Shown piece after piece: positions 3,001-6,000 of a DNA stretch of 9,804 bases. The first letter of the stretch is position 1. Every line of letters starts with the position of its first letter. The position numbers are program-made. The stretch comes from a virus (taxonomy: Duplodnaviria > Heunggongvirae > Uroviricota > Caudoviricetes), in IMG/VR virus record IMGVR_UViG_2531839446_000025, positions 1 to 9,804 of that record, one strand, 5' to 3'.

Positions 3001-6000
3001 CCGGCAAGAGTCAGTAATTGTCCCTGGTCTTCCTGCAGAACAGTCAGGCGACCACCGCGATTGACATACATCGGCGTTTCGGTGGTGTCTTCTTCGGAAA
3101 TTTTCCCGCGGTTAGTCGGGCGAACATATGAGAGTTTGTGTTTGATTTTCACACGGTTCTCATCAAATGGTTCGATTTCCAGGTTGAGTGAGACCTTACC
3201 TTTGGTTTTCGTGTTCATCACACCGGAAGCGACTTCACTGAGAACTGCGCCGATTTTGGTTTCAAATACGCCGCCGTCCAGCTCCCCGATAAATGCCTGC
3301 ACATCAGTACTGCGTTCGCTAGCCATTTTGCTGTTCCTCATCATATCGACCCTGCAAGGTCGGTTGGTTTCTCCACAAAACAGAGAAGAACACCTGCGGT
3401 GGCAGCCGCCCGGATGGATTGGGTTATGAGCCCGTCGTCCGGTGATGCTCTTCTCTGTTTTGTAAAAAGAGCGGTACCAGCCGGAAGCAAGTGTACAAAC
3501 TGGTACCGCCAAAGCAGTGGCTGTTGTGGTGGGGTTGTCACTCAGGCGTATGGTCAACCTGACAATCCGGTGTCCTCAACGGGGAAAGAGTAACCCCGCC
3601 ATACTTACCGCCGCGCCATTTCGCGGATTACCACAACGCTGAGAGCACTTAGCCAGTTACGGCACCACACTTTGTCGCGGCTCCATAAATGCCCTCATCG
3701 TTGCACCCTGGTCTCTTCCCAGGCGTCAAACCGAATCGCCACGCTGGTTAGGCGTCTTATCAGCATCATCATTGACTTGCACATTCCGGCTACCTGGTTT
3801 GTTTGCCCGAGCAAGGAGTGGATTGTCCCCTTTAACGTCCCCAGACCGCTAACGACGCATGTGCCATACGCCGTGTTACAACCAAATTTTGTTAGTACCT
3901 TGTTTGTTTGTCTGGAAAGAAAGATAAAATGAAGTTGCGCATTATGCAAGTGTTTTTGTTGCGAGATATGCAATTTAAAGGGTAATGAAAAGCCACCTTT
4001 GGGTGGCTAATTGATGAGGAGGTAAGGGTTAATTGTGTCGCTTAAGGGTTTGTGACTGGCTGATTAAGACCTTTCCAAAGACCATAAACCGGTGTTCATT
4101 TTCGCTGGTAATTCCCCATTCACGGTAAATCTGGTTATCAGAAATCACCAGTAGTTTGTCAGGTATCATTTGCAGTCGTTTGACATAAATTTTATCATCA
4201 AAACCAAATACATAGATACCATCTCCATCAAACTGATTGATACTGACATCAACGAAGATGAGATCTCCTGGCTCAATGGTTGGACACATACTGTCCCCAC
4301 GAACGTTGATAACTTTAATGTGATTGGCTGGCCGTCCGCCAAACATCGATACAGCATTATCAGTTCTGTATTCAATGGCATGAATCACATCAATGACATC
4401 ACCGCCCTGGATAAGGCCATTTCCCGCACTGGCACTGACATCCAGCATTTCAATACGGAATACATCCTTCACCTGCGCAACATCCTCACTAATACTGTTT
4501 TTACATACAGTATTACTTTTGACGTCTGAGGTAAAGAGATCAGCAATATCAACACCTAAGCTCCTGGCAATATTACTCAGGGCTTGTTCAGTGAATTGTT
4601 TCTGCTTACCTGTTTCCAGGCGTGAGATATTCGCCGCATCCACTCCTATTGCTTCAGCGAGATCGGCGATTTTCATGTTCTTCGCCTGGCGAAGTTGTCT
4701 GACTCGGTTTCCTATGTTCATGCGTTTATTACATTTCTTTATTGCGCGTTAAGCAAATCAACTTGCGCAAAATATTTGCGTGAAATAATATGCTCATCAC
4801 GCAATATGTGGAGGTCATATGCAATCACCATTACGGAATGTGCGTAAGGCGCACGGATTTACTTTGCAGCATGTTGCTGCTGGCGTTCAGGTCAATCCAG
4901 CGACGCTGAGTCGTATTGAAAGACTGGAACAAATTCCATCTATCGATCTTGCAGAACGTCTGGCCAATTTTTTTAAGGGTGAAATCAGCGAAATGCAGAT
5001 TCTTTATCCGGCACGTTTTCAATCTAGCCAAAACCAGAATGGGTTTAAACCACAGGAACAGGAGGTAAGCCGTGGGTAATCATCACTGGAAAGTGGAAAA
5101 ACAGCCTGAGTGGTACGTGAAAGCTGTCAGAAAAACTATCGCGGCGTTGCCGGGGGGTTACGCTGAAGCTGCTGAGTGGCTGGATGTAACAGAGAACGCA
5201 TTATTTAACCGCCTTCGTGCCGATGGCGATCAGATTTTCCCGCTGGGATGGGCAATGATTTTACAACGTGCTGGTGGCACTCACTTCATTGCTGACGCTG
5301 TGGCGCAGTCTGCAAATGGCGTCTTTGTGTCTCTTCCTGACGTCGAGGATGTGGACAATGCCGATATTAACCAGCGTTTACTGGAAGTCATTGAACAGAT
5401 CGGCAGTTATTCAAAACAGATTCGTTCGGCAATCGAAGACGGTGTAGTGGAACCGCATGAGAAGACAGCAATTAACGACGAGCTGTACCTCTCAATTTCG
5501 AAGCTGCAGGAGCATGCAGCACTTGTCTACAAAATTTTTTGCGTTTCAGAAAGTAATGACGCCCGCGAGTGTGCAGCTCCGGGCGTCGTGGCGTCGATTG
5601 CTTCTGGTTGTGGAGAAACTAACGCATGAACAGTTTAACAACACACTACCGTCGCTCGCAACTGATTGCGCTTCCTGTACCGGGTGGAAAAGCGAAGGTG
5701 GAGTATTGCTATGCAGTAAATGTACCAGGTGACAGGGAAATTGTAACCCACAGCTTTGCTGAGTGGGCTGTGGGTGATTTCAACCGGCAGAAGGAGACAG
5801 TCCTTTGCGACAAGTTAACCGCTGGTTCAAAGATCACTACGGAGTGCCCGTCAGAGTCATTCGTTGGGAGCCGGAAACACAACGGGTTATCTACCTCCGC
5901 GAAGGCTATGAGCATGAGTGCTTCAGCCCGCTCGAACAGTTTCGTCGTAAATTCAGGGAAATAGAGGTCGGTCATGAGCACTAAATTAACCGGCTATGTA

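Follow-up and report, generated by a model that had tools for sequence, protein, structure and literature searches.

A modular structured RNA leader with a candidate antiterminator element in the early-left region of an N-less lambdoid prophage

Antitermination of the early operons is a textbook control step of lambdoid phages, and to our knowledge only two solutions to it are known: N protein, which acts at nut sites, and put RNA. Put suppresses termination in cis by binding the zinc-binding domain of the RNA polymerase β′ subunit. Common prophages of E. coli, Shigella and Salmonella, among them SfV, mEp460, cdtI, many Stx2-converting phages and ST64B-like elements, carry neither N nor put, and a 2025 paper leaves the early antitermination of N-less lambdoid phages of the yfdPQR type as an open guess (PMC12315714). 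What stands in such a phage where nut or put would be expected is the question raised by the locus analysed here, a 9,804-nt stretch of viral DNA (Caudoviricetes; positions 1 to 9,804 of the IMG/VR record IMGVR_UViG_2531839446_000025, hereafter the window), which holds the immunity and early region of a compact lambdoid prophage. With transcription from the leftward promoter (pL) starting near 3913, as the promoter hexamers suggest, and the ATG of the first leftward gene, yfdP, at 3326, the leader of the leftward transcript would be ~587 nt long (3913 down to 3327, minus strand). An earlier note on this DNA had singled out nearly the same interval as poor in open reading frames (ORFs) and rich in structure.

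It is highly probable that this interval is a non-coding, structured RNA leader, and its best explanation is the untranslated start of a repressor-controlled pL operon in an N-less lambdoid prophage of the SfV/mEp460 type. The minus strand of the leader folds at -225.7 kcal/mol, compared with -194.5 ± 6.3 kcal/mol for dinucleotide shuffles (z = -4.9), while the plus strand reaches z = -3.65 against its shuffles. In comparison with relatives, the minus strand of the leader resolves into five or six structured RNA modules, conserved and each exchangeable on its own, in the order module C, the long hairpin S1, module B, the intrinsic terminator t1, the long hairpin S2 (module A) and a small hairpin before yfdP (Table 1). 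Covariation was found in four of them (C, B, S2 and S1), where substitutions track base-pairing, not codons. Among 27 diverged copies of module C, stops occur in most sequences in each of the six frames, element lengths are spread over the three residue classes modulo 3, and indel lengths are not divisible by three. The suggestion of a structured 5′ leader or phage non-coding RNA (ncRNA) with no convincing gene is thus borne out, whereas the decayed gene that the earlier note had offered as an alternative finds neither a frame open among relatives nor a Pfam match for the ORFs.

A covariance-model scan is consistent with the absence of any described RNA family, and it identified no family itself: the whole window gave 0 matches to the 4227 models of Rfam 15 at curated thresholds, and positions 3250-4050 at E ≤ 10 gave three chance-level matches only (E 1.6-6.7). 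Rfam likewise matched neither module B nor module C in Qin, P1, phiV10 and mEp390, while the controls worked. These negatives rule out a described family, though not an RNA as such; no description of modules A, B and C was found in the accessible literature or in Rfam 15.

Module C is a structured RNA of an undescribed family. Our covariance model, R1, finds a single copy in the window (142 bits, E 1e-43), composed of helix P1 (3873-3853), helix P2 with a variable insert, the invariant single-stranded 18-mer GUAGCCGGAAUGUGCAAG, a variable P3, P4, whose YUCACCA loop forms a pseudoknot with a downstream GGUG/GGUU, and P5 (3723-3707) with its loop GAAGAGA. P5 is the purine-loop hairpin CCUGG-GAAGAGA-CCAGG (3707-3723, minus strand) already pointed out in the earlier note, and it carries compensatory changes in relatives. 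Clustering at 92% identity left 45 module C representatives, and in an alignment of 27 sequences 96.7% of the cells are paired, with 12 of the 28 pairs changing on both sides. None of 500 shuffles reached the observed values, and sliding the partners by 1-3 columns lowered pairing to 27-52%. The RNA strand is the minus strand, because the invariant G-U pairs (33/91 UG in 27/27 sequences; 10/20 UG in 26/27) would be A-C mismatches on the opposite strand; adjacent tRNAs argue for the same strand, since all of them lie on that of module C (120 loci, among the matches listed).

The 18-mer was recovered from at least 120 IMG/VR loci and 27 genome contigs, 23 of which the covariance model confirms as full members. 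All confirmed contigs belong to Enterobacterales, except one 1.75-kb contig of a metagenome-assembled genome that is labelled Bacillota and is probably mis-binned. R1 had no match in HK022, HK639 or Qin. Altogether, module C occurs in more than 140 Enterobacterales phage or prophage loci and, with invariant GUAGCCGGAAUGUGCAAG, P1, P2, P4 with its pseudoknot, P5 and covariation, it has the features of a proposed new RNA family.

The position of module C depends on the type of phage. In the window it starts ~36 nt past the putative pL start site, and in lambdoid loci it begins 85-150 nt past the stop codon of cI-type repressors of many sequence types, which makes it the first element of the pL transcript. 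An upstream ORF is present in 33 representative loci, and in 18 of these it encodes a repressor with helix-turn-helix and S24 domains (HTH+S24). The lambdoid genes downstream are ParB-like, yfdP-like, Xis or of no assigned function, and no N-like PHROG was found among them in related loci. In P1-like elements, module C starts 1-2 nt past tRNA-Ile2 and precedes ban, and in epsilon15-like phages it lies ~75 nt upstream of a same-strand tRNA-Arg.

Two of these contexts have features of their own. The P1 ban operon (NC_005856) contains counterparts of modules A (twice), B and C among its three tRNA genes. Two annotated genes on the opposite strand, upl and plp, overlap its A-like hairpins and may be doubtful as genes. 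Epsilon15-like phages such as PAT1 and SPN1S have 0.6-1.1 kb without an annotated gene between the terminase and portal genes; module C lies in this stretch, on the strand opposite the late genes, and probably belongs there to a multi-cassette non-coding RNA locus.

The obvious candidate for a relative of module C is put, and the relationship was worth testing because the strings ACGGCG ... CAUGCGUCG are common to put stem I and module C P1. The two RNAs also occupy the same place: in N-less lambdoids, each is the structured element that comes first in the pL transcript, past the repressor gene, and each lies upstream of terminators. They differ in size and architecture, put having ~70 nt and two stem-loops (consensus GNCGAACGGCGCGNC..UAAACCAUGCGUCGG..GGCGGG..CGGCAAU), module C 153-184 nt and five helices plus a pseudoknot; moreover, module C has no second copy downstream of pR. 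We built a put covariance model, R2, from 13 aligned put sequences collected from IMG/VR. It scores 95.5 bits on HK022 putL, which we located through the residues described in PMC9378689, 89.8 bits on the annotated putL-like RNA of HK639, and 30.9 bits on HK022 putR, on which it had not been trained. At E ≤ 10 with filters off, R2 detected no put in the window or in six module C loci, nor in 100 further module C loci, and module C was found in 0 of 100 put loci. Since R2 finds putR yet nothing at module C loci, membership of module C in the put family is ruled out. As for put itself, Rfam 15 contains no such family, as judged by the lack of a match on the annotated HK639 RNA, and a search with only the 15-mer UAAACCAUGCGUCGG recovers at least 120 IMG/VR loci (L164-L283).

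The leader can also be set against lambda-type nut sites and rrn-type boxA antitermination. Leader and nut both lie just past pL, the linker UGCUCU(U/C) in the leader resembles boxA (UGCUCUUUA), and the purine-rich loop of P5 is reminiscent of the GAAGA of boxB. In contrast to nut, the leader has no N homologue in the window (PHROGs and Pfam searches of its genes) or in related loci, and the order differs, with the hairpin first and the boxA-like string 60 nt later. A single-stranded boxA followed by a boxB hairpin was not found in the leader: the sole boxA-like string, GUGCUCUC (3648-3641), lies in the 3′ arm of S1, downstream of P5. Because this arm covaries with its partner, GUGCUCUC is not a free single strand of the kind bound by NusB/NusE, and we gave less weight to the linker GUGCUCU..GUUGUGG as a NusB/NusE boxA, as it is the covarying 3′ arm of long hairpins.

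S1, which follows module C, pairs UGCAACGAUGAGGGCAUUUA with UAAGUGCUCUCAGCGUUGUG in a stem of ~19 bp. In 12 diverse relatives, RNAalifold recovers 19 pairs, 6 of them with compensatory changes. Its 3′ arm is a recurrent linker motif, GUGCKCU(N3-6)GUUGUG, which sits at module boundaries and lies ~150-200 nt past the 18-mer in 35 of the 45 representatives; the cassettes that come after it vary (tRNA-Arg, module B, a GUGAAUGCG... hairpin). One such cassette, (G)UGAAUGCGGCUSAGCGCRCGCGG, follows the linker in many loci (L119, L039 and P1 among them) and follows dicF in Qin (L008 3436-3600). T-arm-like hairpins, GGUUCAAUUCC and GGUUCGAUUCC, lie inside the S1-type hairpins of L015 and L102, before the 3′ arm. 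There are hints in these sequences that S1-type cassettes may derive from tRNA genes.

Module B and t1 connect the leader with the dicF locus. Over 123 nt, module B shares 89% identity with NC_000913 1649251-1649373, the segment directly upstream of dicF in the K-12 prophage Qin, and it is 75% identical to part of the annotated "dicF-like region" of the P1 ban operon leader. Its consensus fold contains 8 compensatory pairs. The long-range pairing GGGGTT (3531-3536) / AACCCC (3593-3598) proposed in the earlier note is not supported: both strings are present, and the comparative fold pairs each with a different, nearer partner. An intrinsic terminator follows module B in all four sequence types recovered (window, Citrobacter-type, Qin and P1), and that of Qin is DicF. 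In the window, t1 comprises an 11-bp stem (GGCGGUACCAG/CUGGUACCGCU), a 19-nt loop and UCUUUUU (-21.2 kcal/mol in the terminator scan), and a compensatory change in the Citrobacter-type relative turns GGUACC into GGUGCC/GGCACC. The GC-rich hairpin with a U-tract pointed out in the earlier note is present, with a perfect 10 bp (3471-3480 / 3500-3509) and, on the minus strand, UCUUUUU at 3470-3464.

t1 shares UUUGGCGGUAYCAGUUU with dicF but lacks ~20 nt of the 5′ seed and has an unrelated loop sequence. The Rfam DicF model (RF00039; gathering score 48 bits) has no match in the window at that score, nor any at E ≤ 10 across 3250-4050, while the Qin dicF, as a positive control, scores 76.7 bits. 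RNAduplex predicts -32.0 kcal/mol for the DicF-like RNA against ftsZ -60..+40, which is no better than shuffles, but authentic DicF does not stand out in this test either (p ~0.15). Module B and t1 together are a homologue of the dicF locus by synteny rather than a member of the DicF family by model, and we rate this part as a new member of a known locus type. Like the leader, the dicB operon places a small RNA (sRNA) module upstream of protein genes under repressor control. A riboswitch-like competition between module B and the terminator, GGCGGUA with UACCGCC, was considered and rejected: the pairing exists in the window and in Qin and is missing from P1, so it is not conserved.

S2 combines an outer stem of ~20 bp with a three-way junction. 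The 15-bp inverted repeat 3375-3389 / 3449-3463 seen earlier is present and extends to 25-nt arms (3375-3399 / 3439-3463) that are 84% complementary, and the 3′ arm is the linker motif in degenerate form. The same architecture precedes yfdP homologues that share as little as 61% amino-acid identity, and a set of 9 sequences, two P1 copies among them, shows 12 compensatory pairs. With its flanking A and U runs, S2 is a possible second, bidirectional terminator. Below it, the yfdP initiation region contains a small hairpin, ACCGACCUUGCAGGGUCGAU (3364-3345), and the Shine-Dalgarno sequence GAGGAA (3339-3334); this ribosome-binding-site hairpin is kept with compensatory changes among yfdP homologues. 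The stems of S1 and S2, at 19-25 bp, would be of the size cut by RNase III, and RNase III processing of the dicB operon was reportedly described by Faubladier et al. in 1990.

The interior of S2 holds GGGCUCAUAACCC (3433-3421, minus strand; ~95 nt upstream of the yfdP start codon), which matches the anticodon stem-loop of E. coli initiator tRNA-fMet at 13/13 nt, with the three G-C pairs and the CUCAUAA loop that define this arm. Local alignment of the S2 interior with positions 10-43 of tRNA-fMet scores 32 against a shuffle maximum of 30, a marginal excess. The motif ACGG(N)NUCAUNNCCCAAUC occurs in 58 of the 283 fetched loci, including two P1 ban operon copies with the long-stem architecture, and the U33-CAU-A37 signature is kept in all module-A-like copies. 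The window contains no tRNA according to ARAGORN (0 genes) and the Rfam tRNA model (no match). S2 shares with tRNA-fMet the anticodon arm, has a 20-bp stem in place of the acceptor stem, and shows no recognisable D-arm or T-arm; some homologues change the stem yet retain U-CAU-A. Like the tRNA-like operator mimics exemplified by the thrS leader, S2 stands upstream of a start codon, as translational operators do. The anticodon-arm copy may serve to decoy an enzyme that recognises CAU anticodon loops, may act as a translational operator of yfdP, or may be what is left of a tRNA.

Taken together, these elements suggest the following course of events. When the cI-like repressor leaves the left operators (OL), RNA polymerase would start near 3913 and transcribe module C first, then S1, the dicF-precursor-like module B and the strong DicF-like intrinsic terminator t1. 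A stop at t1 would yield a ~450-nt non-coding RNA, probably cut at the 19-25-bp stems by an RNase III-type activity, as in the dicB operon, and by RNase E, with stable module C and DicF-like RNAs as the products. Read-through past t1 and S2 would allow yfdPQR, xis and int to be expressed, and module C would be the cis-acting RNA that makes polymerase terminator-resistant, a functional analogue of put and not its relative. A cis-acting antiterminator is the most likely role of module C. It is favoured because t1, which lies between module C and yfdP, and S2 stand before xis and int, because the window has neither N nor put, and because module C holds the nutL/putL position in many immunity types. 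The mutual exclusivity of put and module C at that position is compatible with two alternative solutions to one task. For the mechanistic chain as a whole, antitermination by module C included, we are a little less than half convinced. A broader reading, which we advance as a doubtful one, adds module C to put and the Bacillus EAR element as a third, structurally unrelated class of processive antiterminator RNA acting in cis, which heads portable arrays of processed RNAs in N-less lambdoid, P1-like and epsilon15-like Enterobacterales phages; these arrays would include DicF-type sRNAs and the initiator-tRNA anticodon-arm mimic, as decoy or translational operator.

We rate the leader as belonging with the phage early-operon leader RNAs and antiterminator RNAs. 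It offers a concrete candidate, a strongly covarying RNA of 150-180 nt at the expected place. Roughly one in five complete E. coli genomes carries it, and neither Rfam nor any annotation includes it. The leader also makes the dicF locus part of a larger set of interchangeable RNA modules, found in epsilon15-like phages, the P1 ban operon and the pL leaders of lambdoid phages, with an exact copy of the initiator-tRNA anticodon arm in a conserved hairpin among them. Should antitermination fail, several unannotated structured phage RNAs would still be defined here.

Several observations weigh against antitermination by module C. A sense terminator follows within 900 nt downstream in only ~31 of the 45 representative loci, and terminators are not significantly enriched after module C (56 sense versus 52 antisense in a crude scan). 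In P1, the module-B-associated terminator sits upstream of module C, which therefore cannot overcome it. Qin dicB is expressed past the DicF terminator, and we know of no antiterminator there; t1 may simply be leaky. The exclusivity of put and module C could reflect phage lineage rather than function, and tRNAs or long stems often border module C, an arrangement that agrees at least equally well with its release as a free RNA. All the functional steps, that is, expression, termination and processing, are deduced from sequence.

Much of this fits a different account, in which the leader would be a polycistronic precursor of trans-acting stable RNAs, module C a free processed ncRNA that binds a conserved host partner, protein or RNA, soon after induction, and downstream expression a matter of leaky termination; the DicF-like hairpin would be a base-pairing sRNA with a new seed, and the S2 mimic a decoy for a VapC-type anticodon nuclease, MetRS or TilS. 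We consider this possible rather than probable, nearly as likely as cis antitermination and compatible with it. Unrelated phage types share module C as a mobile cassette, irrespective of the genes that follow, and the module abuts same-strand tRNAs in the P1-like and epsilon15-like settings, which points to release by tRNA processing. A 19-bp stem suited to RNase III follows module C, and the invariance of its 18-nt single-stranded stretch points to a binding partner that is itself conserved. In the P1 ban operon, all three modules (A, B and C) are interspersed with genuine tRNAs, and U33-CAU-A37 is retained throughout the module-A-like copies. On the other hand, none of the sequences tested is convincingly complementary to the conserved loops, and a trans-acting array leaves unexplained why module C keeps its steady first place past pL in lambdoids without N or put. 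Nor does processing speak against a cis role, as put RNA stays functional once cleaved from its transcript (PMC9378689).

Other accounts give module C a lesser part. The leader could chiefly be an insulator or attenuator that, through its tandem terminators (t1, S2) and dense structure, shields xis and int in the lysogen from read-through of the constitutive cI transcript and from basal pL activity, the modules being determinants of processing and stability. The cI terminator, t1 and S2 do stand in series before an operon that ends in xis-int, and t1, S2 and the ribosome-binding-site hairpin are always linked to yfdP, even where modules B and C are missing (SfV, SfII, ST64B). Yet termination by itself would not call for a 178-nt RNA that has a pseudoknot, invariant single strands and 12 covarying pairs, modules B and C also occur where no xis or int lies downstream (the P1 ban operon and the epsilon15-like late region), and xis must still be expressed after induction. 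We rate this account as unlikely. We give even less credence to the idea that the modules are decaying remnants of tRNA/sRNA arrays or recombination linkers, now without function. The tRNA-like fragments inside the long hairpins (the initiator anticodon arm here, T-arm-like hairpins in relatives), the lack of any tRNA call by ARAGORN or Rfam, and the linker motif at module boundaries, where lambdoid mosaic joints are expected, agree with it; compensatory changes that maintain helices in four modules, among sequences below 92% identity and across three phage families, argue against decay, as do the invariance of the 18-mer in more than 140 loci and the near-identity of the leader in many E. coli genomes. 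That the interval encodes small proteins or a frameshifted known gene is hardly credible. Four ORFs of 64-92 codons do exist, as had been noted (3341-3541(-), 3399-3593(+), 3672-3932(+) and 3695-3973(-)), and GenBank records place hypothetical coding sequences (CDSs) inside the leader (mEp460_036/_037 in mEp460, L001; orf40 in cdtI, L002; phiSTEC1575Stx2k_14 to _16 in phiSTEC1575-Stx2k, L003). From record to record, these CDSs differ in strand and position. They lie across covarying RNA helices and are probably not real genes; none of the four ORFs has a Pfam match, RefSeq annotates nothing in this interval of E. coli genomes, and the stops, indels and base-pair-directed substitutions described above do not fit a coding region. 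The preferred explanation remains a non-coding leader in which module C may act in cis.

The leader is a mosaic: in BLAST searches of phage genomes, its parts find different partners (Table 1). In phages of other immunity (cdtI, Ayreon and Stx2c phages, at 99% identity), homology ends at ~3893, just inside the transcript. Of 5426 complete E. coli genomes, 1030 contain the leader at a coverage of at least 80%, and in hundreds of E. coli genomes it is at least 95% identical. The yfdP locus of the K-12 prophage CPS-53 has only the last 19 nt in common with it, so K-12 data are uninformative for the leader. The known prophage sRNAs of enterohaemorrhagic and enteropathogenic E. coli, AgvB, AsxR and PasA-D, are located in the late PR' region and are unrelated to it.

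The placement of a leftward promoter above the leader holds, as the two operators at 3935-3973 match TTGCGCGTTAAGCAA (4742-4756) in the cI-cro interval. The pattern TTGCNNNNNNNGCAA has 4 matches in the window, these three sites and one unrelated, where 0.46 would be expected by chance. The operators come from this pattern search and the pL hexamers and start site from a reading by eye, which suggests a -35 of TTGCAT (3949-3944), a -10 of TATCTT (3926-3921) and a start near 3913. The interval first proposed for the leader, 3327-3930, accordingly holds in its leader part, while its end at 3930 reaches ~17 nt into the promoter. Operator-like TTGCG-N5-xGCAA sites flank the repressor gene on both sides, with further variants at 4763-4781, and we read these sites as those that would define OL and OR of this immunity type.

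Table 1. Positions of the features discussed, in the window unless another record is named
Feature	Record	Positions	Strand	Basis or remark
int	window	1-1128	minus	
xis	window	1109-1369	minus	
yfdR	window	1398-1973	minus	
yfdQ (DUF2303)	window	2074-2898	minus	
yfdP	window	2964-3326	minus	AUG 3326-3324; first leftward gene
yfdP translation initiation region	window	3327-3374	minus	sequence
S2 (module A), long hairpin	window	3375-3463	minus	inverted repeat
t1, putative DicF-like intrinsic terminator or sRNA 3′ module	window	3464-3510	minus	inverted repeat and terminator scan
Module B, closed by GUUGUGGU/ACCACAAC	window	3523-3637	minus	homology and consensus fold
S1, long hairpin, ~19 bp	window	3632-3705	minus	RNAalifold
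Module C, structured RNA of undescribed family	window	3700-3877	minus	covariance model R1
Unstructured A/C-rich leader 5′ end, AGACAAACAAACAAGGUACUAACAAAAUUUGGUUGU	window	3878-3913	minus	between putative start and first module C model position
Putative pL promoter and OL operators	window	3921-3973	minus	pattern search; hexamers read by eye
Operator O2, TTGCGCATTATGCAA	window	3935-3949		
Operator O1, TTGCGAGATATGCAA	window	3959-3973		
cI terminator, hairpin and T-run	window	3991-4008		at repressor gene end
cI-type repressor, HTH+S24	window	4029-4721	minus	
cro	window	4819-5079	plus	
Mosaic piece	window	3327-3531		partners SfV, SfII, ST64B
Mosaic piece	window	3515-3637		partners PPompW-type prophages
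Mosaic piece	window	3631-3887		partners epsilon15-like phages (phiV10, SPN1S, typing phage 9) and P1/P7/D6
put sites	HK639 (L134)	34187-34312		simple covariance model finds putL and putR
put sites	HK022 (L133)	741-811, 1958-2022		simple covariance model finds putL and putR
Counterparts of modules A (twice), B and C	P1 (L004)	2491-2675, ~3600-3720, ~3880-3990, 4863-4956	P1 forward	
Stretch with no annotated gene	PAT1, Salmonella phage (L012)	851-1980		module C opposite late-gene strand
Stretch with no annotated gene	SPN1S (L009)	1217-1809		module C opposite late-gene strand

Besides cro, the plus strand of the window carries a cII-like gene, an O-like replication gene, RusA and others. The early-left operon (1-3326) is unusually short, with yfdP, yfdQ, yfdR, xis and int and with neither a recombination module nor N, and it matches the "no Rec module" class of lambdoid phages (PMC12315714).

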